Source: Reclinomonas americana ATCC 50394 (Eukaryota). From it: a stretch of DNA of 35,987 nt. Positions 1,859 through 33,700 of the stretch are shown here, piece by piece. Within the stretch, counting starts at the first letter, position 1. Every line of letters starts with the position of its first letter. The stretch lies in the NCBI GenBank assembly GCA_048213135.1, contig PS015403.1, positions 3,459-39,445 on the forward strand. Direction: 5' to 3'. The notes beneath the pieces were generated by a model that saw only the letters and a list, made by a program, of their open reading frames with translations, did not search any database and had not been told where the DNA came from. The translations under genes and the position numbers were made by a program.

Positions 1859-4800
1859 ATGGGTCACGTCTTTGCACGCGACACACTTCCTCGCGGCGTC
1901 ATTCGTCAGTTCGAAACATGGTGTGTCTTCTGTGTGTGTATGCATTTTTCCTACACACTCACTCGCACTCACAAATCCTCACTTTGCTGTGCTCTCTCTT
2001 GTTCTCTCGCATGTGGCAGGGACACCAATGATCGCCGTCGGATGGTGGTGAGCACGCGGACATGGCACACACACGAAACATCTTGTCAGACGAACGCACA
2101 CACTCTCTCTCACACACACACACACTGCTCACTCACTCTCCTTACATGCACACATGCGCACACACACTGAGTAACAAAGAAAAGACATCTCTTTTTATTG
2201 TTGTCCGCCTCTCCCTCTCACGCATTGCATTCCAGGTGAAATCAGGCAACATTGTCGGCGAAGAGGTCTCTGCGATTGTCAATCCCGCTCACTCGACACT
2301 CTCCTTCAAAGGAGGTGCGCGACTCTGCCTTTCTCTCCCCTCTTTGCTCACTCACTTACTTGAAACACAAAGGCGTGGCGCAATCGCTGCTCAAGAGCGG
2401 TGGTCGGGAAATCGAGGACGAGTGCAAGAACTATGTGCGCAGGAATGGCCCTCTGCCGACTGGATGTGCCATGAGCACCAGTGCGGGCAACGGTCGGCTG
2501 GCGTGCATGGCGATCATTCACACGGTGGGGCCGAACTGTCGCGATTCGGCAAAGGTGGACTGGGCGCGCGCCGACTCGGAGTTGTCGCAGTCGGTGATGA
2601 ACTGCCTGCAGATTGCCGACGAGCAAGTGCTGCGTAGCGTGGCCTTCCCGGCCATCTCCACGGGCATCTTTGGCTTCCCGGCCGACCGATGCGCATACAT
2701 TATGATCACGTCGGTGCTGCAGTTCTTCAATCAGCGGCCGAATGCCAATGTGACCGAGGTGCGCTTTGTGCTCTTCCAGGACGAGGTGGCGGAGAACTTT
2801 GCACAGGCCGTTGCGTGACACTGTTTTTCCCCCACATTCTTTGCTGCAATCCACACCGCGACATTGTTCTCAATGCATTTGTCCCGTGCAGTTTGACAGT
2901 CTCATGGAGGCCTACATCATGCCTCGGCCGCTGCCGGAGGTGCCGGCGACGCCAAGCACTGTTGCGGCAGCGGACATGCCGTCGGAACCGTCTGGATCGT
3001 CAGGGTCGTCGCCGCCCTCTGGTGCAGCGGCAGCGGCAACACCAGCGGCAGCGGAGCAGCCGCGTCGCAGTGAACCTGCGGTCGCGCAACCGCCGCCATT
3101 GGCCCTCAGCGACAATCCGCGACTGGCACTCGATGCACAGCTCAACATGTGCCGCCAGTCTGAGCGCTCGCTGACAGAAACGGTCGACAGTGTCAGTCGT
3201 CTCATTGACGACCGCCACTTGGTGGACGCCATCGAGGCCTGGGGCATTTTGCTGAAGGCTCAGCAGGCCATTGTTGCGTGCTCTCACCTGTGACTTTTTT
3301 CTGGCGTGGCATACGCGTGCTGAAAAGCAGAGAATGACATGCGTGCAGAACGAGCGGCAGCAATCGGATGTGGCGCCCGAGCTGCGCCGGCTGCACGAGG
3401 TCGTGGATCGCCGCATTCGGCTGGCATTCGCGGCCGCCGGTGAGCTGCGCGCGCTCATCGAGCGTGACAAGGCCATCACTCCTGATGTGGCACGAGCTGC
3501 CGACCTGCGCACGGAGTCGTGTACGGCGGCTGGCGAGTCGATTGATCAGCTCATGGCGTTCTTGGATGCGCGGTGCGCTGCGGAGAACAGTGTGGTGGAG
3601 AGTTTGGAGCGCGTGGCTGCCAGCCTGCGTCGTGTCGGTGTCGCAGTCCCTGTCGACCTGAATGAGTTGCCGGCGCCGTCGCACGAACTCGGTTTGCTGT
3701 GTTTGTTGCCCGTTGTATCGCGTAACGGGTCAGTCTGCTTACGTGTTGCTTCGTCGCAGATCTGCCAAGTCTGTTCATGAGCGTCGAGCAGTGGCTGAGC
3801 ACGCATGTCACGGAGCTGGCCACGGCCACGCACAACTGCAACTTTTACTTTGAGCATGGCACAGTCACGCAGTGGAGGGAGGCAGTGGCCGTGGAGCGCA
3901 CACTGATTCAGCAGGTGTGTTTTTCGAGGGAGAGGGACGAGAGTGTCCACACACAAATGTCTCACCTCGTGCGTGCGCACACAGTGCATGGCATCGTGGC
4001 CGCTGAACCCGGAGTTGGCAGACCCGCTGCAGGTGCTCACGCACATGCGCCGAATGGCCAAGGACACGGTGCAGCTGCTGATCAACCGTCGTGCCAGCAT
4101 GTCGGAGTTGGAGGGTAACCGACGAGTCTTTGATCGCGTCATTCGTGCCCGTCGGGAGGTGTCGTCGCTGGCCACACAGATGGAGGCGGCGCAGCGCAAG
4201 CTCAATTTGAGCCAGCTGGACATTGAGCAAAAGACACTCGATCGCCGCCGCATGGAGTTGCAGGGCGCGTCGGTTGGTGCACTCGACGACATGGACCAGC
4301 AGCTGGCCGAGGCGCGACGGAAGCACGATGAGGCGCGTTCCGAGTTCGAGCGACTCAATGCACAGTTGAAAGACTTCCAGGATCCCGAGTGGCTGCCTGA
4401 TGTCCCGCTGCAGCCCGTCGGCAACACGGCCACGGTTGCGTGCCTATTTGAGGTGGTGGTGTACAGAAGGGGGAAAAGTGGGACTTATACGCGATGTGTG
4501 TGTGTGTGTGCAGGGCTTGTGGATCTCGCAATATGGTGGCACACTGCCGCTGCCGCGTGCGCTGCAGAGCGATGCGCTGCATTTGGTGGGTCGTCGACGC
4601 GAGGACTACGATGCAATCAAGAATTTGGCCAGTGCAAACTCTGTATTCAAGGCGCGCTACCGCCCCACCGAGCACGAGTGCGTCATCAAGCAGTTTGACG
4701 TCAGCCTCCCCGAGCTGCGCCGCGCCTTCCTCAAGGAGCTGTCTGTGCTGCGGAAAGTGCGCCACCCCAATGTCGGTGCGTGCAGCAGAAGAATGTTTGC

Positions 4801-5815
4801 GAGTTTCTCAGAGCGGAGAATACTCACTCTTTTGGCGTGACAGTGCCACTGAATGGCTTCTTTGAGGCGCCGAACAACTGCATGATGCTGGAGTTGCCGT
4901 ATGTCGGCAGCCAAAATCTGTGGCAGTGGCTGGACTCTGAGCGCCCGAGTGACGACGTGATTCGCGCCGTGTTTCAACAGTTGGTGCAGGTGTGTACTCG
5001 AGGGAGAGAGAGAGAGAGAGAAACGAGAGAAAGACTGAGAGAGAATGAGAGACTGATAACGACTGAGAGACACCCGCGCCATGTCGAGTATTCGCAGAGT
5101 GTCTTGCTTAAAATGTGTCACGTTAACTGCAGGGCTTGTTGGCGTTGCACCAAAACGACGTTGTGCACACGGACATGAAGCTGGAGAACGTCGTCATGCG
5201 TGATGACGGTCGTCCCGTGATTGTCGACTTTGATGTGGCCATCAGCAAGGACATGTTGACGAAGCGAACGGCGATTCGGCAGAGTTGCGTGACATGTGCA
5301 ATTCGGATGACCATTCGTTTCCACTTATGTGGAGAGCACACACACAGCGGTGCGTGGTACGGACGGCTATCTGGCGCCTGAGCTGCTCGGCGGTGATGCC
5401 GCGCGCTACATTGACAAGCCCGCTCGCGACATGTGGTGCATCGGTGTTATGCTGATCCGCGCCTACATGTTCAACAACGAGGTGTCGCCGATGATCGACT
5501 TTAGTCGACCCGTGGCCAACATGACGCAGTTTGCCAGCCGTCTGGAGAATGTGCCGTATCTCATGGCGCTGCTGTCGGCACTGGTGGGTGGATGGGAGGA
5601 AGTGGGGAAGGGGCGGAGGGGATATTGGGGAATGAGGGAGAGAGGAGGAGAGGGACGGGGGAAGAGAGAGTGGGAGTATGGGGGAGAGAGAGAAAGAGGT
5701 GGAAGAGAGAGGGGGAAGAACGATAAAGAAGGGAGAGAGAGGAGAGACATGATGTAATGCTCAGTGAGAAAGTGGGAGAATTTGGGAGTGGCGGTAAGGA
5801 CAGAAAGAGTTACAA

Positions 5816-5852
<37 letters not shown>

Positions 5853-6087
5853 GAGGGGAACTAGGATGAACAGANNNNNNNNNNNNNNNNNNNNTAGCAG
5901 AAAAGGGAGGGGGAAAGAAGGAGAGATGAAGTCAGAAGAGACAGAAGAGAGAGGGGTAGAAAAGTGACACTGGTAGAATGTTGGAGAGTAGCGGACAGGA
6001 CAGAAAAGGGTTACGAGAGAGAGAGAGTAGATATGAGAGTAGATAAGAGTGAGAGTGTGAGGAGATATTAGGAGGAGCAGATAACCG

Positions 6088-6118
<31 letters not shown>

Positions 6119-8734
6119 CGAGAAGGAGAAAGCAGGAGAGAGATGAAGAAGGGAGAGCGAGGGAGAGACTGCAGATGTGATAGAAGAGTGACACTGGGAA
6201 AAATTTGAAAGTGGCAGAGAGANNNNNNNNNNNNNNNNNNNNTAGGTTGTTCGGGAGAATATGAGAGAGTGAGAGCGCGAGGAGGAGAGATAAGGAAGGG
6301 AGAGAGAGGGAGAGACGTAGATGTGATAGAAGAGTGAGGGGGAGAATTTGGAGCGTGGCGGAGAGACATAAAATAGATGCAAGAGAGATAGAGAGGTGGT
6401 TGTTTGGGAAGAGAGCGATAATGCCTGTGTCTAAATGGTGCTCTTGTCGCTGCTCCAGTTGACACAAGATCCGAATGCCCGTATTTCTGCGGTGGACGCT
6501 TCTTGCCATCCATACTTTGTGGCATCGCGCGTGTTGATGATGCCATCGGCGCCGTTGCTGGAGCGGACGGAGCGAGCCTACATTAATTTCCGCCAGAGCA
6601 TCTCCAACGCCATTCAGCGCTGCGTCAATCGACGATATATGGTTGCGTTTCTCTGTTTCTCGCCTATTCGCATGCTCGCCTGCTGGGCGACTGACGCAGT
6701 GTGTAGCGTCTTCCGATTCGCCGTGATCACATGGTGGAGGACGTGGTAGAGTTGATGCTGGCACTGGCGCCTGCTTCGTGGCTCGAAAAATCCTACGTCG
6801 AGTATGCCGGCGAGCAGGGCATTGATGTCGGCGGTCTGACGTCGGACATGTACACAAAGGTGAGAGGTTTTCTCTTTCTGTGGGCGGTGTTTTGACTGTC
6901 GCTCACCTCCCTCGGATCAGTTCTTCTATGGCATGTGTGCGGAGGGCAGCGTGTTTGAGAAGGAGGAGCAGAGCCACTTTTACATGCCTGTGGATCTGAA
7001 CAGCATCACAAACGCGGCAAAACGGCAGGCGGCCGAGAGGACGCTCAGGGGCGTCGGCCGTGTGTTTGCGCGGTGCATTGTGGACGAGCGCAAGATTCCG
7101 TATCCGCTCATTGCGCCAGTTTTCTGGACACTGCTGTGCGGTACGGTGGCGTGGGATTGTAGTGTGCTTACTCTGCAGTGGCAATGACCCCATTGTTGAA
7201 TCACGCAGGTGGCGAGTCCACTCAAATCATTTTGCGCACGAGCAGCTCCACCAGCGAGTGCAACTTGCTGCTGCGTGCGCTGGAGCCCATCGACCCTGGA
7301 CTTGTGCGAGTTTTCCGGCAGGCACTGACTGACGACTCGGTGGACACGTGGATGATGACGTTTGAGGATGTGGATCCCGAGTTTTTGCCGTCGGATATGG
7401 GTGCGGAAGGGGGGCGGAGAATGGGAAGGGGGGAGGGGTGAAGGGTGGGAAGGGAGAGCGAATGCGAAATGTTTGTGTGTGAGTTTGGATTGTTGGGAGT
7501 TTGTTTGCTGGATGGTTTATCGATTGTCTGTTTGTCTCGCTGACTCTCGTCACGTCTCCCTTTCTGTCTTTTGACGTTTTTGATTGCTGGTCTGCTTGCA
7601 GTGTGTTGTGTGCTTGTCCCCTCTCTCTGGCTGTCTGGCTACCGTCGCACTTGCATGCCCTCCTGCCTGGCTGTGTGTCTGTCTGTTTTTCTTGCACACA
7701 CTCTTTCTCTCTCTCTCTCTCTCTGACACTGTCCCCATCTTTCTGTCTGCCTGTTTTTGTTCGACTGTCCCGCTTGTTCTGTTGCGTGCTTGTTTTTTGA
7801 CTGTCTCTGGCTATCTGTTTCTCTCTTTGTCTTCTCACTGTTCGGTCGGTTGCATTTCGTTGTGTACTCCTCTTTTCTCTCTCCTCTCTCTCTTTCAGCC
7901 TGGCTGTCTGTTTGGTTTCCTTCTGTTTGAGAACTCGTTTTGCTTGTCTCTTGGACGCTTTCTTCTCTCTCTCTCTCCATCTAGTTGAACGTTTGCCTGC
8001 TTGTTTTTCTACTCTCTCTTTTTCTGTCGCGTGTCTGTTGCTTACTTGATCGCCAACAGAGGCCACCACTCTTGTGCGAGCCTCTAACGCCTACACATAC
8101 GTGTGCAACCGATGTCGCTCGCGATTGGCCACCAACGGCCGCCGTGCTGCCATTGATTTTATCCGTGAGGGCATGCGAGATCTGCTCTGCGTGCCGGTGG
8201 AAGTTGCATTTCACAACCCCTCTGTTGCTGTGTATCGATCTCCAACTTGTGCTCATTACTGGCACTTCAGGTATTCGAGGCCATGACGCCATCGTCGTGG
8301 ATGCGAGTGCTGGTGGCCGACGAGTCGATGGATGTCAGCGACATTCTCAGCATTATCCAGTATCACGGGCGTGGTGGGGCGATCAAGGAGATTTTGGAGG
8401 ACGTGCTGCGGTCATTCTCGGAGCCGGAGCTGCGCGCGTTCTTGCAGTTTGTCACTGGCCAGCCGGCGTTGTGTGCCGAGTTGAACGTCAAGGCGGTGGA
8501 TGTGCCACGCGACGCACTGCCAGTGTTGCGTCTTTTCGTTGTTTGTCATTTGTTACTACTGTAGCCGTTGTTCACCACTGCACGTGTAGGGCGCACACGT
8601 GCTTCCTCCAGCTGGATGTGAGCCGTCGTCTTGGAGCCGTGGCATCCGAGGCCGAGCGCAGAGAAGCAGTAGACCTTTTGCGCTCCAAGCTGTTGTACGC
8701 CATGGAGAACTGCGACGGCTTTGCTCTCGAATAA
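1859..8734 (+). CDS. Macro domain - coiled coil - Ser/Thr-like protein kinase - HECT E3 ubiquitin ligase fusion (~1339 aa, 19 exons)
   Basis: Exons 1859-1920, 2020-2047, 2236-2314, 2373-2809, 2892-3272, 3349-3691, 3760-3914, 3985-4434, 4514-4775, 4844-4989, 5133-5283, 5348-5583, 6459-6641, 6707-6859, 6921-7140, 7209-7400, 8060-8202, 8271-8524, 8590-8734 splice in phase (4020 nt). Macro: AIVNPAH..KGGVA..IIHTVGP..VAFPAISTGIFGFP. Kinase: CVIK, FLKE, HTDMKLEN, DFD, GTDGYLAPE, DMWCIG, DPNARIS..HPYF. HECT: GEQGIDVGGL, FLQFVTG, LPVAHTCF, terminal GFALE. Confidence 0.85.
5584..6458 (+). repeat. Polypurine (GA)n-rich low-complexity intron with two short N gaps and an internal degenerate duplication
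   Basis: Almost pure A/G on the + strand. AGATGTGATAGAAGAGTGA occurs near 6173 and 6319. Confidence 0.8.
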
Positions 8735-8745
8735 GTTATTGCTGC

Positions 8746-8751
8746 AATAAA
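8746..8751 (+). terminator. Candidate polyadenylation signal AATAAA
   Basis: AATAAA about 12 nt after the HECT gene stop, in a short convergent intergenic region. Confidence 0.4.
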
Positions 8752-8893: not shown

Positions 8894-10253
8894 TCACAAC
8901 TTGGCCGTGAGACCACCAGCAGACGCGGCGGCGATTTCGGTGACCGCACGCACGCCGGTCTCCATCGCAGTGTGAATGGTCGACGACACACTGGTGTGCG
9001 TGGCCTCACCGGCGAAGAACAAGCGCCCGTGCACCGGCTGTGCGAGACGAGATGAGGAGAGAAACGCAGTGCAGGCAACGTGCAGTGCACAAGCAAGTAC
9101 CTCGGCGAGTGCCAGCTTCTTGCCGTAGGCGCCGACCGAGGGATGGCTGTACGACCCGCGAATGAACGGGTGGTCCTTCCACGAGTACACAGCGGCGTCT
9201 CCAAACGAGCTGGTGGCCGGCTTCGGGTTCTGCTCGGTGCCAAACATGGTGTCGAGGAACTCGAGGAACTCGCGTGTGCCCTTCTCCTTGCCGAGCCGTC
9301 GGAGGCGATCGTCGGCATCGTCACCAATGACAAAGGCCACCACAGTGTACTCCTGCTCGCCAGGTCTGCAGCGTGCCGGGTTAGGGGTCTTACGAGGAAC
9401 ACCGAGGCGACAGGGTTACTCACCGCTTGCCAGGGAATGGACCATTCATCCACACTTGCGAAAACTGCGGATTCTCGGTGATCACCAGATCAATAGTCTG
9501 TTCACAAGGGTCAACGGTGAGGCCAGATGGGGACGAAGGGAGGCAGGTGACACTCACTGACCTCCGGCCAGAACCGCTTGTTGAATCGGCAGATAATCTG
9601 CAGGGGAGCAGAGGTTAGAAAAATCGACATGTGGGGAAAGGACACTGACACACACGCACCTTTGCGCCACCCTCCATGCCAATGCTCTTGGCGGCATCGA
9701 TCTTGGCCGGCGGCAGTGGCGGATCGAAAGTAATGTCGCCCGCGGCGAGAATCGTCACCGGCACGGTGATAATCACATGGTCACACCGCACCACTTCGCC
9801 GTTCTGGTTGGTGATCTCCACGCCCGAGTCCTCGCGGTAGCGGATGTTCTTGGCCTGCCAGTTGAGGCGGACATCGACGCCCTCGGTGAGCGCATCCAGC
9901 ACCTGCTTGGTGGAGCGCCAGAAGCGGAAATTGTCGCGTCCGTACTTCCACTGGCGATCCTCACGAGCGCCCTCCTGCGCACAGGGAGTGAGGCACCAGC
10001 GTGGAAACATGGATGGCAATAGAGAAAACTGCGCTCACCTTGACACCGAGCCGCGTGCACGTGGTGCCATAGGTGCGGCAGTAGAGCGACTCGGCCACGC
10101 GGAATAACTCCTCGTGCACGCCCTTCTCCCGCAGATACTCGTAGAAGGAGACATCGTCGGGCATGTCCTCCTCCTCGTCGCCAATCATGTCGATCACCGC
10201 AAACATGTGCTCCATGTGCGGACTGGTCTCGCCCTCGAACACCATTTGCCCGC
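8894..10253 (-). CDS. Flavin-containing amine oxidase (MAO/polyamine oxidase family), central and C-terminal exons; ends in PTS1 AKL
   Basis: DHVIITVPVTIL..ITFDPPLPPAK..AAKSIGM, W..HPFIRGSYSHP, LAEPVHGRLFFAGEAT...TIHTAMETGVRAV. Last codons GCC AAG TTG TGA. Exons 10253-10039, 9974-9660, 9597-9562 and three more; upstream part runs into the N gap. Confidence 0.9.
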
Positions 10254-11027
10254 CTGCGGGTTGCCGAAAGGAGAAGGGGTTGAGTAAGGGAGTAGTGAGA
10301 GTGACGAGAAGTGATCAGCAGCAAGCGCTGGCGTGGAGGTTGAGCAGAAANNNNNNNNNNNNNNNNNNNNNNNNNNNNNNNNNNNNNNNNNNNNNNNNNN
10401 NNNNNNNNNNNNNNNNNNNNNNNNNNNNNNNNNNNNNNNNNNNNNNNNNNNNNNNNNNNNNNNNNNNNNNNNNNNNNNNNNNNNNNNNNNNNNNNNNNNN
10501 NNNNNNNNNNNNNNNNNNNNNNNNNNNNNNNNNNNNNNNNNNNNNNNNNNNNNNNNNNNNNNNNNNNNNNNNNNNNNNNNNNNNNNNNNNNNNNNNNNNN
10601 NNNNNNNNNNNNNNNNNNNNNNNNNNNNNNNNNNNNNNNNNNNNNNNNNNNNNNNNNNNNNNNNNNNNNNNNNNNNNNNNNNNNNNNNNNNNNNNNNNNN
10701 NNNNNNNNNNNNNNNNNNNNNNNNNNNNNNNNNNNNNNNNNNNNNNNNNNNNNNNNNNNNNNNNNNNNNNNNNNNNNNNNNNNNNNNNNNNNNNNNNNNN
10801 NNNNNNNNNNNNNNNNNNNNNNNNNNNNNNNNNNNNNNNNNNNNNNNNNNNNNNNNNNNNNNNNNNNNNNNNNNNNNNNNNNNNNNNNNNNNNNNNNNNN
10901 NNNNNNNNNNNNNNNNNNNNNNNNNNNNNNNNNNNNNNNNNNNNNNNNNNNNNNNNNNNNNNNNNNNNNNNNNNNNNNNNNNNNNNNNNNNNNNNNNNNN
11001 NNNNNNNNNNNNNNNNNNNNNNNNNNN

Positions 11028-11556
11028 GCTGGAGCTGGCTCCGCCAACGTGAGTCTCGGCAGGTCGCTTCACGCCTCTCATTGCCTTCATCGACACATCG
11101 TCTGAGAGTGACGCGCGGGCCCGTCGCTGGCGGGAAACGAACAGATTGAGACGCTCTCTCTCTCTCTCCCTCCCTCCTTCTCTCTCTCTCTCTCTCTCTC
11201 ACACACGCATGCACACACACCCACGCACATACACATGCACGCACCTGTGCCGCCTCATGAAGCAACTTGATCTCCTTCTCCTTTATGTAAACATCGTCGC
11301 GCCACTTCAACAACCTCTTGATGGCCACTGCCTTGCTCGTCTTCTTGAAGGAGCCAGCCGGGAACAGCTGCGCAAGATGGTCACGAAGAGCGTTGATCGT
11401 GAAAGCGCGATCCAGCAGGTCGTCGGTCCATTCCTCTTCCGGTGCAGTCAAGATGGCCAGCTTGCGTTGACGCCCGCTGGAACCCGACGACGAGGCCTGG
11501 TTGGCCACTCGCTCGAGCTCGGAGGATGAATCGCCGGTGTCGTCGTCGTCCATCAT
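11028..11556 (-). CDS. CR/Crinkler-like NTPase-REase gene, copy 1, N-terminal exons (on flipped contig)
   Basis: MMDDDDTGDSSSE...EEWTDDLLDRAFTINALRDHLAQLFPAGSFKKTSKAVAIKRLLKWRDD, homologous to the starts at 14958, 19789 and 23068. Confidence 0.75.
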
Positions 11557-12252
11557 TCCAACTCGCAGCGTTGTGATCGATATCGAGATTGCCGGAAGGT
11601 TTACATATCGCAACAGAGTCGGTGAGCAGGCGCTGATAGCGGACTGGCTGTGTATCTGCGTTTTGCGGCGTGTGCACGAATTCAAAGCTGCGGAGGGGCA
11701 CCCGCAGGCGAGAACATCGGAAAGCCTTAGAGATATCGCAGCGCGATAGATCGGCGATCGTCGTCATCGCGGTCGCGGAATCAGAAGCAACCCCGGCGCT
11801 CTGAATTCGGCAGTGGGTGTCGGAGCTCAAGGCCACAATGAATGAGTGCCTAAGAGGTGCGAGAAGCTTGCCGCGAAATCGCACGCGCAGCGCTGCTGTG
11901 CACCGTGTTCGGATTTGATTATGATATGGCGAATTCGGATTAGCTGCCTCAATGCTCGCCAGCCCTGGATTCTGCCAGAAAGCAGTCTTCATGTGCTCAT
12001 GTGCTATCCTCTGACCTGCACGCAGAGACATGCGTATGCAGATCGCAGTGATCGATATCGATATCGTTATTTTACAGTATCCGATTGCGTATGCAATCGC
12101 AACGCAGACTCCTGAATTCGTTGCTGCCGGTGCGGAACGCTCGAAGCATCGAAGAGCCCACCTGTATACCGCGGACAATTCCGGCCAACTCGCGATGTAT
12201 TTGGAATCTATTTGTCACATAACACATTGAATCCAACCTTGGAGAGCGAGCG

Positions 12253-12399
12253 ATGTCGTTGAGATCCTCCCCAACAGTGGCCATTATCGGCGCCGGTGCC
12301 GCCGGCTTGTACGCCGCACAGCTGCTGCGTCGCCAATCCTCTATCCGCCTTGTGGGCGTCTTCGAAGCCGCCGATCGTGCCGGCGGTCGCGTCCGCGCA
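12253..12399 (+). CDS. First exon of a flavin amine oxidase (FAD-binding Rossmann motif); probably the start of the 8894-10253 gene on a flipped contig
   Basis: MSLRSSPTVAIIGAGAAGLYAAQLL...VFEAADRAGGRVRA (GxGxxG plus the E..GGR motif), followed by donor GTTGCA at 12400. Confidence 0.8.
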
Positions 12400-12456
12400 G
12401 TTGCATTCCTTCATCCATCCTGCATCTGCGCATCTTGCTCATGGAATGATGCGCAT

Positions 12457-12507
<51 letters not shown>

Positions 12508-12754
12508 NNNNNNNNNNNNNNNNNNNNNNNNNNNNNNNNNNNNNNNNNNNNNNNNNNNNNNNNNNNNNNNNNNNNNNNNNNNNNNNNNNNNNNNNNNNNN
12601 NNNNNNNNNNNNNNNNNNNNNNNNNNNNNNNNNNNNNNNNNNNNNNNNNNNNNNNNNNNNNNNNNNNNNNNNNNNNNNNNNNNNNNNNNNNNNNNNNNNN
12701 NNNNNNNNNNNNNNNNNNNNNNNNNNNNNNNNNNNNNNNNNNNNNNNNNNNNNN

Positions 12755-14832
12755 ACTACTGGCAGCCCGGCTGGAGTTCGGGTTCTCTCCTCGCCAGTGG
12801 CTTTTGTGCCAGCTGTGGCCCGACTTGTCCACCGGGCGTATGCGAGCGTCCCTCAATCGTCTGGACCACCATCACCTGGAGCAACTGCTGCGTTCATTGC
12901 TGGAGTTTGCGCGGAACTGTGACCCAGAACGGCAGCGGATGCCAGTGGCCGTCGATGAGGCCCAAGTGTGGATGCATACACTTCCGAACACATTTCCTTC
13001 GCATGCGCGACAAGATTCCGTTACGTCACATTGTTTTGCTTGTTTGCCGCTTTGTTGCCGATTTCTTTGCTGAATGGCACACCTTGCGTATGATTGCTGC
13101 AGGCCCCGCCTATGCGTGGATTGCTATCACCATTTGTACGGTTTTTGTGCCGACACAAATTCGTCAATGTCATGGTGGCCGGAACTGCCTTGTCACTGCG
13201 TGACGAAGCGCAGTTGGCGTCGACTGTGGCTAAAATAGCGGACGTTGGTCGCCTTGGGCAGCATCTTCGCCCGCTGACGCTCCTGGACGCGCGTGCTCTG
13301 TTCGCGCGATTCGGTGCGGAAAACCTGAGCGGTGAAGAGCTTGACGTGTTGCGGCCGATCATTGGTGCGTTGCATGCGATCGTGAACTGCATTGATACGG
13401 AGTCTTGTCTCTTAATGCACAGTTACAGGCCGCCCTCGATACTGTATGCGGATTCTTAGGCGCCTCTACCTTCACAAAACGCCGGTGGCATCGCGCAAGG
13501 ACGTGCTCGTGCAAGCTGTGCAGTGGATCGTGAGTCGAGAACTCTCCGGGCACTCTACGTCACTGTTCAAGTTAATCTCACGGACATTGCGTGGCGGCGA
13601 ATGCGGAATATCTGCAGTTGCTTTTCTCCTGTTGCTTTTTCTCTTGTCGGTGACTGATCGTTGCTCATCCGTCACACTGGGTCATGCAGTACTGCAAGAA
13701 AATGCTCGAGGGCTGGCGCACAAATACACCGGTGACCATCGACCCCAGGCAAGCGTTTGATGCAGTCGCTTCTGGCGTGTGCTACTTGGTGCACAGCACA
13801 CAAGACATGCAAGACATGGATGTCGATGTTTCTGAGGACGAGGACTGTGTGCAGGCTCGGATCGTCGAGGTGTGTACTGTGGTTGAATCTCTACGAGTCC
13901 CTGGGTTCTTGTCTTCTCACTGACTGTCTTGCAGCCATTGGCCTTCGTCTGCTTCCTGCGAGCGGTTCACCAGGAATTTGGAGCTGATGGACTGTCGCTG
14001 CCGAGAATGACTCTTGGCGATGCCTCCACCGGCTCTTCCAACGGCCGTCTTCTGGAGGAAGCTTGTGTGACCAATCTGGCTGTGCAAGCCAGCTTTGGCA
14101 AAGCTGGCTTACGTCTCTCAGACATCGTCGAGAGCGCTGTGGAGCCAAGGTCTCTGTCTACGTTTGTGTTGGGTGTTCATCGAGTGTTTCCTCTAATCGA
14201 TCGTCTTGCATTGTTGCAGTGCTGCCGAGAGCCTCGTGCTTCCCGACTTTGTGCACGAAGCAGCAGCATTGCAGCTGTGGCATCTGTTGGATCACGAAGC
14301 GTCGTTTGATATCAAGGTCAATGTTGATATGGAGCACGTGCTGCCGCTCCCACCGGCCGTGTTCAGACTTCAGCTTGCCCGTGCGCCTGACAACTTTCGA
14401 GGGCCAGACATCTTTGTCACGTTTGTGACACGCGGCGGCCGATACGTGCTGCTGTGCGTCTCGTGCAAGCAGACAACCCGCAGCAGTGAGCCACTGTCTG
14501 GCGACGATGTCGTCAGGTCGCTGGGCACGACGCATCGGACGAACCCGTTCCTGCGTCGCTGTCTGGCCGATCCGGATCGAGTGGCCGGTCTTGTTCGTGT
14601 CCACATTGGACTGCCGACGCATGCGCCTCTCCGCCAGCGTCCGGTCACGGAAGCAGCCGAACTCTTCGAGAGCGCGAAGCGTACTCGTGGCAGTTACCGA
14701 CTGCGATCGGGAGTCATTGTTGTTCGGTCCGAGTGGGAAGAGGACCGTGACGGCGTGCTTGCGCCGCCGGAGGTCGTGGTGAATATCGACTGCAGCAATG
14801 CCCGCCGCAGTCTCTTCTTGTCCCTGCAGTAG
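12755..14832 (+). CDS. CR/Crinkler-like NTPase-REase gene, copy 1, body (Walker B to stop)
   Basis: PVAVDEAQ (Walker B), VMVAGTALSL, IIGRPRY, IVEPLA, PDNFRGPDIFVTF...LLCVSCK (PD-(D/E)xK-like). Stop TAG at 14830-14832. Confidence 0.7.
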
Positions 14833-14869
14833 AACAACAGTGGGTGTCTGTTGGCCAAGAATGAATGCA

Positions 14870-14957
14870 CGCTATCAGCGCCTGCTCACCGACTCTGTTG
14901 CGATATGTAAACCTTCCGGCAATCTCGATATCGATCACAACGCTGCGAGTTGGGACG
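14870..14957 (+). promoter_or_regulatory. Conserved ~85-bp upstream element (promoter/5'UTR) of array copies 1-3
   Basis: CGCTATCAGCGCCTGCTCACCGACTCTGTTGCGATATGTAAACCTTCCGGCAATCTCGATATCGATCACAACGCTGCGAGTTGG is repeated at ~19701-19784 and, reverse-complemented, at ~11558-11641. Confidence 0.55.
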
Positions 14958-19663: not shown

Positions 19664-19788
19664 ATCAACAGTGGGTGTCTGTTGGCCAGGAATGAATGCA
19701 CGCTATCAGCGCCTGCTCACCGACTCTGTTGCGATATGTAAACCTTCCGGCAATCTCGATATCGATCACAACGCTGCGAGTTGGGACG

Positions 19789-22700: not shown

Positions 22701-22854
22701 TGGCAGTTACCGGCTGCGATCGGGAGTCATTGTTGTTCGGTCCGAGTGGGAGGAGGACCGTGACGGCGTGCTTGCACCACCGGAGGTCGTGGTGAATATC
22801 GACTGTAGCAATGCCCGCCGCAGTCTGTTCTTCCAGCTGCAGCGTGATTCGTAG
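19789..22854 (+). CDS. CR/Crinkler-like NTPase-REase gene, copy 3 (Walker A exon on flipped contig 20037-20743; part of the N-terminus missing)
   Basis: LVNVSGAGKT on the - strand at ~20270-20240. Body 20764-22854 carries the same motifs and ends SLFFQLQRDS*. Confidence 0.7.
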
Positions 22855-23067
22855 TAGATGGTTGTTGACCAAGAATGAATGCATGCTGCAAATTATGTGC
22901 AGTCAGCTCTCCGTTAACGTTGCAAGTCAAGCAACCAGTCCGCAACTCTGAACTCTTAATCGCTGTTGCTCTTCAGATGTCGCGATCGTCGAGTCTCGCT
23001 CAAAGTCGACCCAATCGACATCGACCGAAAAGTTCGTTTTTTGCAAGTGTCAGCGGGCGTCACCACG

Positions 23068-23385
23068 ATGGACCTCGATGACACCGACGATTCTTTTTCC
23101 GGGCGAGAAAACAGAACAACTCGTGACGCGCGAGTTCCCAACCAGGCCTCGTCGTCGGGTTCCAGAGGGCGCCCACGCAAGTTAGACGTCATGAACATGC
23201 CAGAGGAGGAGTGGACCGAGGCCCTGTTGAAGAACACTTACAAAGTCGCTGCTCTTCGTGACCGTCTGGCGAAGCTGTTCCCGGGCGAGTCCTTCAAGAA
23301 GACGAAGGAAGCGGATGCGATCACGCGGCTACTGAAGTGGCGCGATGAGGAGTGGCAGATCAAGTTGCAACATGAGGATGCACAG
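23068..23385 (+). CDS. CR/Crinkler-like gene, copy 4, first exon (diverged; remainder in gap)
   Basis: MDLDDTDDS...PEEEWTEALLKNTYKVAALRDRLAKLFPGESFKKTKEADAITRLLKWRD, then GC donor at 23386. The intron end at 23501-23520 matches the copy-1 intron end. Confidence 0.7.
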
Positions 23386-23865
23386 GCAAGTGATTTGTGT
23401 GCATGTGTGCATGTGTGTTGCATCGGCGTGCGTGCGTGTGTGTTTGCGTGCGTGTGTGTTTGTGTGTGAGAGAGACAGAGAGTAAGTGTGTGAGAGAGAG
23501 TCTCAATCTGTTTGTTTCCCNNNNNNNNNNNNNNNNNNNNNNNNNNNNNNNNNNNNNNNNNNNNNNNNNNNNNNNNNNNNNNNNNNNNNNNNNNNNNNNN
23601 NNNNNNNNNNNNNNNNNNNNNNNNNNNNNNNNNNNNNNNNNNNNNNNNNNNNNNNNNNNNNNNNNNNNNNNNNNNNNNNNNNNNNNNNNNNNNNNNNNNN
23701 NNNNNNNNNNNNNNNNNNNNNNNNNNNNNNNNNNNNNNNNNNNNNNNNNNNNNNNNNNNNGTGCGCAAAACACAAACAAACAAAGCAAAAGGCTCGAGAT
23801 GAGCGACATCTCACTTTTGTCTCGCGCGCGCGCGCCCCCGTTTTTCGAGGTGCGTTCAACGTAAC

Positions 23866-24790
23866 CTCGCGCTCCTTGTTGAACTTGATCTCCTTCTCCG
23901 GGTAAAAGTTGTTCCACAGGCGGCACAAGAGTTGTCCGTCGGAAATGGCCTCCCACAAGTCGCCCGCCTAAGCACACACACGCACGAATTGATCAGCATG
24001 CATGCTCATATAGTACAGAGAGAGAAGGAGAGAGAGGCGAAGAGAGAGAGAGGAAAGTGTGCGTACTATGACAAAATGATCAGATTGTGATGCACACACA
24101 AGTGCAAAGAGCACACACACATACTCTCTCTCACGCAGAGAGGAGTGTGCAAAGTGCGCAAGTGACGCCACATGATCTTTCACAATGACGCACACTCACT
24201 GTGCGCGCGCGCAGAGAGCACACACTCGTGCACACACATGCACACACACAGGCGCGCACAATGCTCAGTGTGTGTGTGCATAGCGTGTGCGAAAGTGATG
24301 CAGTGGGCGAACAATGCACACAATGATGCACACCTCAATGAGCGCATCTGTGACAGCGCGCAACACAGGCGAGTGTGTGTGTGTGCGAGAGTGTGCGAGA
24401 GTGTGTGTGTGTGTGCGTGCATGAAAGAGCAGATGCTCAAAATCGTCTAATGCACGTGTCACAGAGAGACAGAGAGAGAGAACGCACAGAGACACTGGCA
24501 AGACATACAGGCGCAGTGTGTGTGTGAGTGTGTGTGTGTGTGTCCACTTATTGCACGACACATAGAGGAGATTAACGAACATGCACTCTTCTCTCTCTGT
24601 CTCTCTCTTGTTACGCAACTGCCTCTGCGCCTCCTGGCATGCGCAGTGACTCTGCGGCCCATCGACTGATCTCATGTGAGTAGAGCGCATCGTCTTCCAC
24701 GCGACGCTCCATGCGACGCGTGTCCATGGTCGAGCCTTCGGCCTCGCGTTGCGCCATCTTTTGGCGCAGTTCTTGCATAAAGTCTGCCAT
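23866..24790 (-). CDS. Calponin-homology (CH) domain protein, first two exons (rest in gap)
   Basis: Exons 24790-24620 and 23967-23866 give MADFMQELRQKMAQ...EISRWAAESL...AGDLWEAISDGQLLCRLWNNFYP, the W..DL.E.(L/I)SDG..LC.L.N pattern of single-CH (calponin/Vav/IQGAP-type) domains. Confidence 0.75.
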
Positions 24791-27135: not shown

Positions 27136-28928
27136 CGAGTCATCCTCGGACGCCACCGCCAGCTCATCTGAATCAGCCTCAAACGGATTCCACTCAATCG
27201 AGGTAATAGGGCCGGCGTGATACGCATGCCCGCCGACGGGCTGGAACGACGGCTGGCGCGCGATAAACTTGCGCAGATCCCACACCTTGAAGGCACCGTC
27301 GTCGCCGCCCGAGGCCAGCAAGTGCGCCTGATGCCTGCACTCCAACGAGTGAGAATGCGGAGGGAAGACACCACCACAAGACGGCTTCTTTTGACACCAA
27401 CCTGTTCCATGAAATCACATTCACGTCGCTGTCGTGCGCCTGCACCGTCAGCTGGCACTTCTTTTCCCTGGTGTCCCAGATGCGCACGGTGTGATCGGCC
27501 GAGCAGGTGGCAAACACAGTGCGCTCCGTCGGGCTCCACTGAATGTCCTCCACCGACGACTTGTGCCCTCTCCGAGCCGCCTCCACTTGCCATGCTCCGG
27601 CCTCCAGCGGCTTCCACACGCACACGTGATTTGCGCAGTCGCCACTTGCGAACCTGGGGAGCCGGTGTGAGTCTCTCACGACGAAGAAAAAGAGGGTTCT
27701 TGTGAGTGAACGAAACAATCCCGGCGTCAGCAGACTCCAGTCCATCGCAAATCCCTCGGCGGCGTGCTGATGCGAGAAGAGTGGCGCGGGGTTGGCCGAC
27801 TGGCGGTGCATGGGGCCGACCAGCGATGCAATCTTCTCCGCAATGTCCCACATGTAGACGTTGCCGTCCTCGGACCACGAGGCCACAATGTTCGAATGTT
27901 GTGGCATGCACTGGGAGGAGCAAGTCAGCGACGCAAAAGCAGAAGGGAGAACGTGAAGCGCACTCACCCTCACACGGTTGACAGCGCCAGGGTGCGGCAC
28001 AGTGCGATGCTCCAGCACTGGATCATCGTCGACATTGTCGCCCGTCTCGTCCTCATCGTCGCCTGCTCGCACTCGTCAGGCCTTGACTTGTCTACGCTTC
28101 TAACCCCCCCTCTCTCTCTCACGCAACTATCCAGCGCCTCATCAAACTTGGTGCGATACAAGTCCGAGAACTTCATCACATACAGCATACTGGCACCGTC
28201 CGCCGCCTGCGATCCACTGACCAAGAAGCCCGTCATCGGGAACTACACAAGCAGCAAGTGAGCAAGCGATGGTGAAGCCAACGTTCTACTACTACACAGT
28301 AACACAACATTGACGCGGTTCTCGCCCAAGTCATCTCGAATGCAATCAAACGACAAGCACGGCCACTCGGCGGCCACCGCGTAGTAAATCTCGTACGCAC
28401 TCGAGTCGTAATCAAGCACCTCGTCCTCGCCCATTCCCTGCGATCGACGCCACACTGCGACCGGACCCTTTGCCTCCTCATCTTCTTCGTCGTCTTCCTC
28501 TCCGTCGACTGGAGCCGCAGAGGAGCTTGCACCTCCCCCCTCGTCCTCATCACTGTCCTCATCGATTTCCTCATCGTCGAATGCCGCCGGTTCCTCTTCG
28601 TATTCGTCCTCAAAGGCATCCTCAAAGTTCGGCAACTCGCCGTCGTCCTCCAAATCGCGTCTGAGGGGCGCGCGCGTGTAAACAAAGTGTGTGAATGTGC
28701 CGTGATGTGCAGATCTGCACATGCCCCCCGCCCCCTCTCACTCGCGCTCGCGCCCACGCACTCTTCGTCGTGTTCCCCCTCGTCGTGCTCTAGTGGCTCC
28801 TCCGCGACATCACGCACAGAGCGCGCCACTGCATCGTCTCCGGCGGCTGCTCCTGCTCCGGATGAGGCAAAGGTCACTGCGCGTCGCTTCTTGCGCCCGG
28901 ATGAGCCCTCTCCTCTTCTCTTTGGCAT
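27136..28928 (-). CDS. GRWD1: Glutamate-rich WD40 protein 1 / ribosome assembly factor Rrb1 (last exon(s) presumably in gap 25751-26692)
   Basis: Acidic N-terminus, LDYDSSAYEIYY...EWPCLSFD.IRDDLG.NR..FP, H..EGFAMDWS, GHKSSVEDIQWSPTERTVFATCSAD, AHDSDVNVISWN, LASGGDDG.FKVWDLR, YH.GPITSIEWNP. Confidence 0.92.
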
Positions 28929-28996
28929 GTGTGTGAAAGGGGGAAAGGGGGAGGAGAGTGTTGTGCGTAAGAGAGGGGAAGAGAGTGTTTGAGAGA

Positions 28997-29989: not shown

Positions 29990-30530
29990 ATTCATTCACT
30001 GTGTCATTCGCGCGCTCTCACAACTCGCATTGTGACACTCAATTCTTGTCTTTGTCACTCTCCTTCACTCGTTTGTGTGCGTCTCCTTGCACACTGGCCT
30101 CACGCTGACAAGGCGCTCTGTTGCGCTCATGCTTGCAGCCTCTCATAAGTGCGCACTCTCACAAACTCTCATTGGGACACTCAATTCGTCTCGCTCACTC
30201 TCCTTCATGCCTTTGCGCTCTCCCATGCACTCTTGGACTCGCTCACGCTCGCACGTTCATTCATGCAGCCTCTCGCACTTGCGCACTCTCACAAACTCTC
30301 ATTGAGACGCTCAATTCTCTCAGCCACCCTGTCGTTCTCACCACGCGCTCTCACCCGCGCTTGTCACGCTGCTCTTGTCATTCACTGTGTCCCTCACCCT
30401 TGCGCACTCGATCTCCCTTTGCGACACGCAGTTCTCTCTGGCAGCCTTCTCTCCTCGTTCTCTTGTCGCTCACTCTCTCAGCCTCACCTCTTTCTGTCGC
30501 TCATCGCGACACTCAATTCTCTCACTCTCC
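29990..30530. repeat. Degenerate CT/CA-rich tandem repeats (units ~85-145 bp)
   Basis: GCGCACTCTCACAAACTCTCATTG.GAC.CTCAATTC at ~30151 and ~30281; related GACAC(T/G)CA(A/G)TTC at ~30034, ~30423 and ~30508. Confidence 0.6.
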
Positions 30531-30769
30531 CTTTCCACTCTCCTTTCCGCTCTCCCTCCCCACCCTGTGGTTTCTCACCGCTGCTCGCGTCGTGAAAGTA
30601 ATCTGTTCTGTGTCGGGGAAGTGAGGTTGCTTTGGCGTGAGAAGGAAGATTTTGCTCGCACTGTTCTTCTTCGTTTTGCGTGTTCGTGTGCGCGCGGGCC
30701 TGCCCTCACTCACTCTCGCTCTCCATCATGGCGACTGCAGAGTGCGCGTTCTTTTCGTTTGAGTTTGTG

Positions 30770-33700
30770 ATGGCGGATCTGGACTCGCTGGATGACCTGC
30801 TGGCGCAGCAGCGCGACATGCAGGCCGACATGTTGGCGATTGAGAGGGCGATTGGTGCGCGCGGGAGAGAGTGTGTTTTCGTGTGAATAAGTGTCATGCT
30901 CATTTCGGCGCGGGTGCAGCTCGTGGAGAGGATCCGTTCTCACGACCACGTGACGAGGATGCCGCCGCAGTGGCAGCAGCAGCCGCCGCCGCAGCACCTG
31001 CACCGTTCACCGCCACACGATTGACACAGGAGGCGTTGAATGGCGCTGCGGGTGGTGCGGGTGGTGGTGGACGGGGTCTGGTGATTGGCGACGACGATGA
31101 TGACTTTGCGGATGTGGACGGCTTGTTGAGTGAGCAGCTGAGCCCGAAAGACGAGGCACCTGCCGCGCCAGCGCCGGTGTCATCCGGCCCTGCACCACCG
31201 CTCCCGCCGCCACGACCAACACTGCCGTCGGCCTCTGGCCCTTCACGGGCGAATTACACGGCGCATGCTGTTGTCGCCGCGGCACCGACCAAGTCGATCA
31301 CGTCGCCGAATGCGACAGGAGTTGCGCGCACCCGTCCTCCCTCTCCCTTCCGTCCTCACTGCCGCCCTGACCCTCGCCATCTGCAGGGTTATCTGACCAA
31401 CGGAAGCAAAATCGTGTTGCGCGTGCAGGATCCCACACCGCGCACCGACGACATGGTGGAAGGAGAGCATGGTGACGACGAGTTGACGCCAGGCGGCAGT
31501 GCCAATGGGACACCGGCCAAGTCCACGCCGGGCAAGACGCGCACCGGCGCGCGCTCCGACACACCGTCGTCGATGGACTCGTCGAGTGCGGGAGGGTTGT
31601 TCGCGCGTCTGAATAAGAACGTGCCGACGCCGTCCTCCAAGACACCGGCGAAGAAGTTGGCGAGTGCCGGCAGTGCCTCGGCGCACGTGGTGTACCGCTC
31701 ACCCATGGGACAAACGACCGGCACGCCCAAGGCGGCATCGGCGGCCGCCAAGGCCAGCACACCCAAGGCGGCGGCCACGGCTGGAGGACCTACCCGAGGT
31801 GGTCCTCCTCTCGGTACGCCCACCAAGACACCGCAGCGCATGTCGGCCGCGCAAGTCGCGTCGTCCACCATTCGCGCTCCGGGAGCACGGACGCCGACAA
31901 ATGCACAGCAGTTGAGTGCTCTCCCCTGCAAGGAGGGTTTTGCGAAAAGAGAGAGTGCTCACCTTTCTGTTGATGTAGGCGAACTGGACGCTCACCAGCC
32001 AAGTCGCCAGCCACCAAATCACCCGCCAAGACACCGCCACGGTCGAAATCACCGGGCGCCTCGTCGAACGGCCCCTCGCCAGGCACCACCAAGTCACCGT
32101 CACACGCTCGCGGTTCACGGTCACGCTCGCCACCTCGCGCCGCGTCGGTGCGCTCACAGGGACGAGTTGCGTACTCTTCACCGTCTCCTCCTTTTGCACA
32201 AAAAGAAAGGCCACTCACCCGCTACGCAGGCGCAGTCGGCAGCATCAGGGCGCTCCATGTCGCGCGGCTTCTCCTCACGCGATCGCTCATGCATGAGCAG
32301 CGGAGCCGGGGAGCGAGTATTCGCGCCAGGCACATTCGGCACCGCCATTGCGCCGACCATTGTGTCGGAGTGCGAGGCCGTGTGCCCGGTGCTGGTGTAT
32401 GGTGATGCCGAGGCCGATATGATTCTGCACGAGCGACCGCCGTCGACGGTCATGGGTCGTGCACCGCGGCGCACCAGTATTGAGACGTACACGAGGAGCA
32501 AGCGGGATGCACCAGGTGGGTGGATGGGGAAGGGATGAGGGAAAGGGATTAAGGGGAGGGGGAAGGGGGTGAGAGGGGAAGGGGGTGAGAGGGGAAGGGG
32601 AAGGGGGTGAATGGGGAAGGGGGAGGGGGTGGGGTGACGGGTGAATGGTGAAGGGAAAGAGTGATACATGGCACAGTGAGTGAGGGAAAAATAAGTATGT
32701 GAGCGAGTGCAAGAGAGGGAGAGAGTGACTGCAGTATGTGAAGGCAGTGAGGAAGTGCATTCATTGAGTGAGTGAGAGAGAGAGTTATCACAATTGTTGA
32801 TGGTCAGAGCTGACAGGGTTTGTGGAGTGTGCTTGTATTTGATTGAGGAGTCGCGACTGTGGTCGGCAGACAGAGTGGCGTGCATACTTGTTGGGAAGGG
32901 AGCGAGGGAGCGCCGTCACAAACTCAGCGACGTGTTTGTGAGAGTGTGGGATACGAGATTTCAATTGTTAAAGGTAACGAGAACGCGGCTGATAAGCAGA
33001 ACGACATGCATGTCGGCTGTGGGAAGTGAGCGAGTGATTGGTTGTGTGAGAGGGAGAATGAGGGTGGGATTGTTGGGGACAGTGAGCGCTCCGCGCAACG
33101 GTGGCATGATAGGAGGGTGTGAGCGTACTTTGTTGACGCCCGCAAGATGGCGTGTGAGAGCGTTCAGCTCGTGATCTAAGTTGGAGAGATTACAGTTGGG
33201 GAGATAAACAGAATACTGTGCATGTTTGTGGAGTGTGCATCTTTCTTGGAGCGAGTGATTTTGGCAATTTGTGAGTGAGAGATGAGTGTCACTCAGCGCT
33301 ATGCATCTTTGTGCTGTGTGAGCACGACGGGTAGAGAGCGAGTGGCAATGCCGGTCGCAGTGATCTGATGTGTGAGATTGTGTATCGTGAGTGGGAGACA
33401 AGAGAGTGCACGGCACTGTTATGCATGTTTGTGGCGTGAGCTTGGTAGCAAGAGAGTGTCCGTGCGACAATCACAGCTATCTGAGCGTGGTCAAGCGTGT
33501 TGTGTGAGGAAGGGAGCAAAGTGGGTGCTTGCTCCACTCCCACGTGCCATGCTGATGCGTCACAACAAGGAGAACAACAACATCAGCACAGTGACAGATA
33601 CACTTGTTAGTGGCTCTCTCTCTCACAAAAAAGGTGTGCAACAGTTTGTTCAGTGGTGACTTGAGCCTGAAGTGTTTTGTTGATGTCACACAGTATGGTT

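Follow-up and report, generated by a model that had tools for sequence, protein, structure and literature searches.

A frequent GTT-type class of 5' splice sites in Reclinomonas americana, possibly read by U1 slid by one base

We analysed a stretch of 35,987 nucleotides from Reclinomonas americana ATCC 50394 (GenBank assembly GCA_048213135.1, contig PS015403.1, positions 3,459 to 39,445 of the forward strand), hereafter called the window and numbered from its first base, and examined how the introns of its genes begin. The curated set of 51 distinct introns comprises 34 introns with the usual donor of these genes, AG/GTGCGT (class 1; a slash marks the exon-intron boundary), and 17 introns that begin with GTT followed by the same consensus displaced by one base (class 2), which amounts to 33% (95% confidence interval 21-48%). 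Our results support GTT donors as a real, abundant and separate class of 5' splice sites.

Results

The window is nuclear eukaryotic DNA of ~55% G+C with ten assembly gaps and numerous short introns. Genes were assigned by Pfam searches of six-frame open reading frames (ORFs) together with homolog searches, which gave nine genes in the 36 kb (Table 1). The closest protein match of any of them is 65% identical (GRWD1), and no protein match was returned with a HECT exon as query.

As an unbiased sampler of donors, and for that use only, we ran a Viterbi gene finder that had no donor model and combined a codon-position Markov model with any GT, any AG and frame consistency; the opposite strand served as the control, early runs having merged genes and called both strands. 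Seven of the 72 donors chosen on the coding strand read GTTGCGT and ten fit GTT[GAT][CTA]GT, whereas neither word occurred among the 72 donors chosen on the opposite strand. Over the 2167 coding-strand GT dinucleotides, real donors included, the two words number 13 (0.60%) and 32 (1.48%), respectively, and the binomial p of their enrichment at donor-blind donors is 2.9e-7 and 1.2e-7. Among the ten GTT[GAT][CTA]GT donors, 1310 is wrong by homology and 32166 is ambiguous, being an in-phase alternative to 32148. Counted over both strands, GTTGCGT occurs 16 times vs 7.3 +/- 2.5 expected, a number reached in 1 of 100 shuffles. The finder recovered 10 of the 17 curated class-2 donors and missed 4435, 8525, 13020, 13617, 31321, 31911 and 23865; it overlooks micro-exons, and two wrong donors that it placed in the acetyl-CoA synthetase (ACS) gene, 648 and 1310, were corrected by homology.

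Unsupervised expectation-maximization with two motifs plus background, run from 30 random starts on 66 donor-blind donors, returned.AG/GTGcGt with a weight of 0.46 and /GTTGCGTg with a weight of 0.22. When donors were predicted anew three times with the learnt mixture, the shares became 0.57 and 0.34 of 63 donors, but we did not use these values because doubtful GTNNNGT sites were by then being drawn into the second motif. The two motifs and the count of 17 in 51 introns bear out the original prediction that a second donor class is abundant here.

Paralogous introns were counted once in the curated set, two introns are represented by a visible donor only, and those at 26, 3692/3701, 5584/5602, 1921 and 2048 were excluded, their borders being unsettled. 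Among homology-fixed introns, class 2 accounts for 4 of 17. All 20 GTT words listed in the original prediction are present where it placed them (the coordinate on the minus strand being that of the first G), but the words at 21029 and 21626 nearly duplicate those at 13020 and 13617, respectively. Four class-2 introns are supported by homology (8525, 27716, 28127 and 28308), seven by the gene finder together with long open frames (2810, 3273, 5284, 6642, 8203, 24619 and 31911) and one, weakly, by paralog comparison (13617), while five are ambiguous (4435, 12400, 13020 with its paralogs 21029 and 17842, 31321 and 23865).

Class 1 (n = 34) favours A at -2 (19) and G at -1 (31), followed on the intron side by G at +3 (27), C at +4 (17), G at +5 (31), T at +6 (20) and G at +7 (18). 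The exon side of class 2 (n = 17) has C at -2 (7) and, at -1, A (8), T (4), G (3) or C (2), and its intron side has T at +3 (17), G at +4 (14), C at +5 (15), G at +6 (14), T at +7 (16) and either G (7) or T (7) at +8. Thus A-G/G-T-G-C-G-T-G and A/G-T-T-G-C-G-T-G differ by one letter, with the cut displaced by one base. A weight matrix built from class 1, which scores 8.8 bits on class 1 itself, gave class-2 sites -5.2 bits directly, a mean of +5.5 bits once the +3 T was deleted, and +3.7 bits when slid by one base, the last score including a forced U at the '+1' slot. The predicted one-base shift of the downstream block (+4G +5C +6G +7T vs G/C/G/T in class 1) is therefore present.

On the exon side, G at -1 drops from 31/34 in class 1 to 3/17 in class 2 (Fisher p 2.8e-7), in agreement with the earlier remark that the preceding base is mostly not G and often A. 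The A at -1 in class 2 (8/17) resembles the A at -2 in class 1 (19/34). Furthermore, when exon positions -2 and -1 are scored in the slid instead of the usual slots, the fit improves by 36.6 bits for all 17 sites together and by 27.5 bits for the 11 with the best support, most of the 36.6 bits stemming from the missing -1 G.

All 16 class-2 introns with both ends visible read GT...YAG. Median intron lengths are 66 vs 68 nt between the classes, a CTSAY branch motif lies within the last 40 nt of 19/33 class-1 and 9/16 class-2 introns, and in both classes a median of 16 nt separates the branch A from the 3' end, so that class 2 carries the same branch motif as the bulk introns. Class-2 introns more often end in TAG (5/16 vs 1/33 in class 1, p 0.011), the 3' regions being otherwise alike.

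Junctions were examined with a spliced protein-to-DNA aligner run donor-blind, any GT...AG being allowed in any phase. In GRWD1, all seven homologs chose donors 28308 (GTTGTGT), 28127 (GTTGCGT), 27716 (GTTTCGT) and 27967 (GTGAGT), and donor 27401 (GTTGGT) was chosen by four of the seven, the other three taking 27397. When the joined GRWD1 model was aligned to 71 homologs by MAFFT, no gap fell within R-x-x-FP-x-T (28308) or G-(R/L)-(L/F)-ASGDC (27716), the 28127 junction falling in a variable acidic stretch. A donor placed 3 nt downstream of 28308 would insert a residue present in none of the 15 homologs shown. The homologs of two enzymes placed class-1 donors only: 12/12 ACS homologs gave eight U2-type introns (282, 446, 653, 738, 846, 958, 1295 and 1415), and 12/12 homologs of malate synthase G gave two (35509 and 35100).

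In the gene that combines kinase and HECT domains, the 8524/8590 junction alone, of 13 frame-compatible solutions, yields LP-V-AHTCF, the split codon gt+g encoding V. We take LP-V-AHTCF to be the HECT catalytic-cysteine motif. The first residue of the last exon of this gene corresponds to position 271 of the Pfam HECT profile. Searches of the PDB gave weak matches of the penultimate HECT exon to HUWE1 and TRIP12, HUWE1 matching the FLQFVTG that precedes the 8525 junction, and gave no match for the last exon. The exons flanking intron 5284 match positions 110-146 and 158-193 of the Pkinase profile. Such single-exon Pfam coordinates agree with the kinase and HECT junctions but are too coarse to fix them.

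Joined exons across class-2 introns give open frames. The original prediction had regarded several of these junctions as forced by reading frame and conserved motifs; with regard to the frame this goes too far, as 2-13 GT-AG solutions are left per intron and 5284 itself has an in-frame alternative. The alternative frame-compatible donors share no common motif, and many need GAG acceptors.

Individual class-2 introns are listed in Table 1. None of the other donors in the seven frame-compatible GT-AG solutions for intron 2810 resembles either consensus. For intron 4435 the donor-blind finder took 4459 (GTGTAC), and 4435 was chosen only once the donor model had been learnt. The acceptor of intron 12400 is uncertain because the intron spans the assembly gap 12508-12754, and 23865 is ambiguous because its acceptor is lost in the gap 23521-23760. 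Donor 24619 is the sole possible one for its intron: it is followed by an in-frame TAA at +5 and is common to both frame-compatible solutions.

Paralogous copies inform two further introns. Intron 13020 is non-coding because paralog indels of -2, +1 and +5 fall inside it, and the gene finder read through its counterpart in copy 2 (17842-17928) because these 87 nt are open in frame. The exon preceding 13617 reaches the GT because the 87 nt upstream stay open, with six synonymous paralog changes. The GTTGCT words (13617 and 21626) that had been counted as members of the class keep an intron border supported by paralogs, but they are weak members, the paralogous site in copy 2 reading GTTAATC.

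In the S/P/K-rich gene, intron 31321 is not required for the frame because its 66 nt are in frame and open, while splicing of intron 31911 gives a SPAKSPATKSPAKTP-type exon with a composition like that of its flanks.

Table 1. Genes of the window and its class-2 (GTT) introns. Coordinates are window positions; exon bases are in lower case before the slash.
Feature	Coordinates	Strand	Donor	Remarks
Acetyl-CoA synthetase (ACS), 3' part	1-1575	+
Macro + coiled-coil + protein kinase + HECT gene	about 1920-8734	+
Amine oxidase	8894-12000	-
Lineage-specific gene, three tandem copies	12000-23400	+
Small calponin-homology-like gene	24790-23860	-		domain label is our reading, made without a family search
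GRWD1/RRB1	28928-27136	-		gene end lost in gap
S/P/K-rich gene	30728-32538	+
Malate synthase G, 3' part	35657-34700	-
Intron 2810, macro-kinase-HECT gene	2810-2891	+	gcc/GTTGCGTGAC	picked donor-blind
Intron 3273	3273-3348	+	att/GTTGCGTGCT	picked donor-blind; donor used in 6/8 frame-compatible solutions
Intron 4435	4435-4513	+	acg/GTTGCGTGCC	ambiguous; six in-frame donors possible
Intron 5284, kinase activation loop	5284-5347	+	aga/GTTGCGTGAC	picked donor-blind; in-frame alternative 5296 GTGCAA
Intron 6642	6642-6706	+	atg/GTTGCGTTTC	picked donor-blind; CTGAC branch motif 9 nt upstream of TAG
Intron 8203	8203-8270	+	gaa/GTTGCATTTC	class-2 relative; picked donor-blind; twelve frame-compatible solutions
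Intron 8525, HECT C-lobe	8525-8589	+	agt/GTTGCGTCTT	rebuilds LP-V-AHTCF
Intron 12400	12400-12797	+	gca/GTTGCATTCC	class-2 relative; ambiguous; picked donor-blind
Intron 13020, gene-family copy 1	13020-13102	+	tcc/GTTACGTCAC	ambiguous; in-phase alternative donor 12966 GTGTGG
Intron 17842, copy 2 paralog of 13020	17842-17928	+	tcc/GTTGCGTCAC	same column in three-copy alignment; ambiguous
Intron 21029, copy 3 paralog of 13020	21029-21111	+	GTTACGT	not an independent case: copy 3 is 95% identical to copy 1
Intron 13617, copy 1	13617-13689	+	gca/GTTGCTTTTC	weak member; same in copy 3 at 21626-21698
Intron 24619, calponin-homology-like gene	23968-24619	-	gca/GTTGCGTAAC	picked donor-blind
Donor 23865	23859-23865	-	gag/GTTACGT	donor only; coding-like sequence stops here
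Intron 27716, GRWD1/RRB1	27654-27716	-	att/GTTTCGTTCA	7/7 homologs, donor-blind spliced alignment
Intron 28127, GRWD1	28063-28127	-	ata/GTTGCGTGAG	donor 7/7 homologs; acceptor 28063 in 6, 28066 in 1
Intron 28308, GRWD1	28243-28308	-	aat/GTTGTGTTAC	7/7 homologs
Intron 31321, S/P/K-rich gene	31321-31386	+	gga/GTTGCGCGCA	class-2 relative; ambiguous; intron-like (pyrimidine-rich, CCTGAC, CTGCAG)
Intron 31911	31911-31978	+	gca/GTTGAGTGCT	chosen by the finder after donor model learnt; seven solutions

U12-type introns begin with [AG]TATCCTT and have their branch site, TCCTTRAC, 10-20 nt before the 3' end. Assignment of class 2 to this type was rejected, as none of the 17 donors matches [AG]TATCCTT and no TCCTTRAC branch site was found in these introns. 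Class 2 and U12-type introns are alike in forming a second, parallel intron class that occurs within the same genes and has a donor word to itself; they are unlike in that class 2 has the CTSAY branch motif of class 1 and a YAG end. A true U12-type AT-AC intron occurs in the ACS gene at 1131-1211 (+), where the donor is ctt/ATATCCTTT and 17 nt separate the branch site TCCTTGAC (1188-1195) from the AC that ends the intron; it was picked in 12/12 homolog alignments once AT...AC was allowed (scores +34-48). The organism therefore keeps a minor spliceosome. A search of the window with Rfam found no snRNA gene and nothing at gathering scores, and at E<=1 it gave only two sub-threshold microRNA-like matches, both inside a CA repeat.

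Other features of these genes were observed. Introns 653-724 and 738-806 of the ACS gene enclose a 13-nt micro-exon at 725-737 (+), part of VSGHNL, which 12/12 homolog alignments detected and the gene finder overlooked. The gene at about 1920-8734 (+) combines a macro domain, a long coiled-coil, a protein kinase and a divergent HECT ubiquitin-ligase domain, and a single-exon search found no full-length relative. A probable intron in its macro domain, 2315-2372 (+), reads gag/GTGCGCGAC ... acacaaag/gcg, and this AAG end would be the sole non-YAG acceptor in the curated set. Its long introns 5584-6458 and 7401-8059 (+) contain strand-asymmetric purine (GA/GGGA) and pyrimidine (CT) microsatellites, and two assembly gaps lie within the former.

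The lineage-specific gene is represented by a tandem triplication of a 2.1-2.4-kb segment (12756-15149, 17578-19980 and 20765-22887, +) with no clear Pfam family. Copies 1 and 3 are 95% identical, and copy 2 is 86-88% identical to them. Perfectly identical blocks adjoin diverged blocks in these copies, which suggests that gene conversion may have acted among them. Donors differ between the copies at 13870/18691 (GTGTGT vs GTGCAC) and at 13617/18437 (GTTGCT vs GTTAAT). In the S/P/K-rich gene, a 564-codon ORF (30844-32538, +) stays open through the well-formed putative introns 31911-31978 and 32148-32229; it reads the exon between them in the wrong frame, and the spliced product is more coherent in its S/P/K-rich composition. 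At 32148/32166, the class-1 word tcg/GTGCGC and the class-2 word cga/GTTGCGT stand 18 nt apart in the same phase.

Discussion

We favour, at about even confidence, the reading that class-2 introns are ordinary GT-AG introns of the U2 type whose 5' splice site takes a second form, on which U1 small nuclear RNA (snRNA) pairs one base out of its usual register. We infer that splicing would occur at GU, that U1 would be the reader and that it would be slid rather than bulged. In the slid register, intron G+1 would occupy the slot of exon G-1, U+3 that of U+2, and G+4, G+6 and U+7 those of +3, +5 and +6, while exon A-1 would take the slot of A-2. The cut would still be set at GU by later steps (U5, U6 and Prp8), and U6 would have to reach G+6/U+7 over one extra nucleotide, a demand common to all the readings of how U1 recognises these sites. 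The slid register would explain the invariant T at +3, because U+3 pairs with U1 A7, as well as the loss of G and the presence of A at -1 and the one-base displacement of GCGU. Folding with RNAduplex, using the canonical U1 5' end AUACUUACCUG as printed in PMC4856993, placed the minimum-energy pairing of the class-2 consensus in the slid register, with C-2, A-1, G+1, U+3, G+4, G+6, U+7 and G+8 paired and U+2 and C+5 open. Class-2 sites thus match the U1 5' end well after a slide of one base but badly in the canonical register, and their exon side (-1 G 3/17, -1 A 8/17, -2 C 7/17) fits the slid pairing.

Several points weigh against this reading. The slid duplex is weak, its energy being -2.4 kcal/mol, whereas canonically paired class 1 reaches -8.9 kcal/mol. 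Loss of the -1 G would also be expected if the exon were simply unpaired, and the A at -1 is by itself marginal (p 0.03, vs 24%), the C at -2 being weak too. The strong C at +5 in class 2, like that at +4 in class 1, has no partner in canonical U1 or U6, so the snRNAs of the organism may differ. Six of the 17 class-2 sites are ambiguous or weak, the tight class-2 consensus is partly circular because the class was partly defined by its motif, and frames alone leave 2-13 GT-AG solutions for each of the 12 class-2 introns tested. Class-2 junctions are predicted here from genomic DNA and protein homology, and the sample is a single 36-kb window with 9 genes. Finally, class 2 is unevenly distributed, with 0/16 introns in three enzyme genes (ACS 0/8, amine oxidase 0/6, malate synthase G 0/2) vs 17/35 elsewhere (Fisher p 3.5e-4); this could result from small-sample chance, expression level or intron age.

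A bulged U would produce the same displacement with U1 in its usual register (G+1 with C8, U+2 with A7), one U of +2/+3 being looped out and pairing resuming at G+4. Removing the +3 T does restore a canonical site, with the top score on the class-1 matrix (+5.5 vs +3.7 bits slid), and a U beside a U can slip, which would explain the constant extra T; the +2/+3 bulge is, according to Tan et al. (2016, PMC4856993), an experimentally proven human register. With a bulge, however, exon -1 still lies opposite U1 C9, and G there should persist or rise, whereas it falls from 31/34 to 3/17; the usual slots match the exon side 36.6 bits less well than the slid ones, and RNAduplex with the canonical U1 end favours slid pairing of the consensus. 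A bulged U accounts for the displacement but not for the exon pattern, and we consider it rather unlikely. The exon pattern is also covered if class 2 has a reader of its own, be it a second U1, an altered U6 or a protein factor, and if two donor codes run in parallel. A variant U1 with C8 -> A would be the full complement of A/GUUGCGU and would account for all features, the tight consensus included. That consensus is tighter than in class 1 (+5 C 15/17 vs +4 C 17/34; +7 T 16/17 vs +6 T 20/34), a standard U1 forms only a weak slid duplex, canonical snRNAs offer no explanation for the C at +4/+5, and both the uneven gene spread (0/16 vs 17/35) and the excess of TAG ends (5/16 vs 1/33) would suit a separate machinery. 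Set against this, Rfam found no snRNA gene in the window, the tightness is partly a product of how the class was picked, and branch motif, spacing and intron length are equal between the classes; we hold such a dedicated reader to be unlikely. In its fullest form, in which the simplest reader would be a second, C8 -> A U1 on a lineage-specific ...ACGCACC... type U1, possibly with altered U6 docking, and the two codes would be used by different gene sets, the proposal is equally improbable.

The remaining explanations fare worse in our judgement. The introns could be real and many of them use another nearby GT, the GTT word being a by-product. The 2-13 frame solutions leave room for this, the donor-blind finder preferred other donors at 7/17 sites, and a solution with the GT five bases downstream exists for 2810, 3273, 5284, 28127 and 31911. 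That GT, at +6 of GTTGCGT, was rejected as the true donor: it is frame-compatible in 5/12 introns, but it requires GAG acceptors and the homologs are against it. More generally, the alternatives lack a shared motif, most come with GAG acceptors, and 7/7 GRWD1 homologs reject them, while a word that makes up 0.6% of GT is unlikely to fall by chance on 7/72 donor-blind donors (p 3e-7) and on none of the opposite strand. We consider such mis-parsing very unlikely. Borders of the type TT...GG, slid by one base, were likewise rejected, as they give the same mRNA only if the next exon begins with G and, at 28308, would replace the conserved F of FP. As for a systematic extra-T error of sequencing or assembly, or a family of introners, copied introns that bring a 5' end with them, the draft assembly does have 10 gaps, and several class-2 introns are alike over their first 10-12 bases (GTTGCGTGAC occurs twice). 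Yet GTT is found in all three paralogous copies at 86-95% identity, and an intronic error could not alter the exon base at -1 (G 3/17 vs 31/34). Moreover, when 51 intron bodies stripped of donor word and acceptor were compared by blastn-short, only paralogous pairs and short simple repeats were alike, and a self-blast of this one window found only the gene triplication. We regard an artefact or a mobile element as a remote prospect.

Other systems offer partial parallels to slid U1 pairing. The bulge +2/+3 register of human 5' splice sites was reportedly described by Roca and colleagues in 2012. Class 2 resembles it in having GUU followed by a normal downstream consensus, from which removal of one U restores a canonical site (+5.5 bits), but differs in having lost the -1 G that the bulge is expected to keep. 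According to Tan et al. (2016, PMC4856993), suppressor snRNAs served to prove the slid and the bulged U1 register in human cells, site by site; among 201,541 human sites, validated non-canonical registers account for 1.5%, and a +2/+3 bulge was predicted at 68 sites, of which 54 were kept. Mammalian shifted-register sites, attributed there to Roca and Krainer 2009 and measured again, are like class 2 in their GU cut, in the displacement of every U1 pair by one (U+3-A7, G+1-C9) and in their non-G exon end; they differ in being a handful of GUUAAGU/GUCAAGU sites, whereas here 17/51 introns are involved and carry their own GCGU block. A tolerance of U6:5'ss pairing for another register, as class 2 would need at G+6/U+7, is seen at the human STAT3 tandem donor (Kramarek et al. 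2024, PMC11162779), although that case concerns one human exon with two GUs three bases apart and not a genome-wide class.

The class-1 donor has parallels of its own. Ostreococcus is said to have an AG/GTGCGT donor, as Irimia and Roy reportedly noted in 2008. The same word is the bulk donor of Micromonas, together with a CTGAC-like branch motif 43-52 bp upstream (Verhelst et al. 2013, PMC3879977). Class 1 thus shares both donor word and branch motif with these Mamiellophyceae, but the motif lies about 16 nt upstream here, and the U12 spliceosome absent there is implied here by the AT-AC intron. The passages on Micromonas donors compared here (PMC3879977) mention no GTT class, the supplementary logos lying outside this comparison, and a literature search of partial coverage found no description of one.

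Slid and bulged registers being already known, the novelty here would lie in abundance: a one-base-displaced donor appears as a major class, in about a third of the introns of the window, vs a few percent at most in human. In such a genome, gene predictors trained on one donor matrix would get a third of the junctions wrong. If two donor codes indeed exist, they would allow splicing to be controlled class by class, a U2-type counterpart to the split between major and minor spliceosomes. If slid U1 pairing is true, R. americana would offer a natural genome-wide system for understanding how the cut site is fixed with U1 out of register, how U6 handles an extra nucleotide, and whether snRNA variants co-evolve with splice-site classes.

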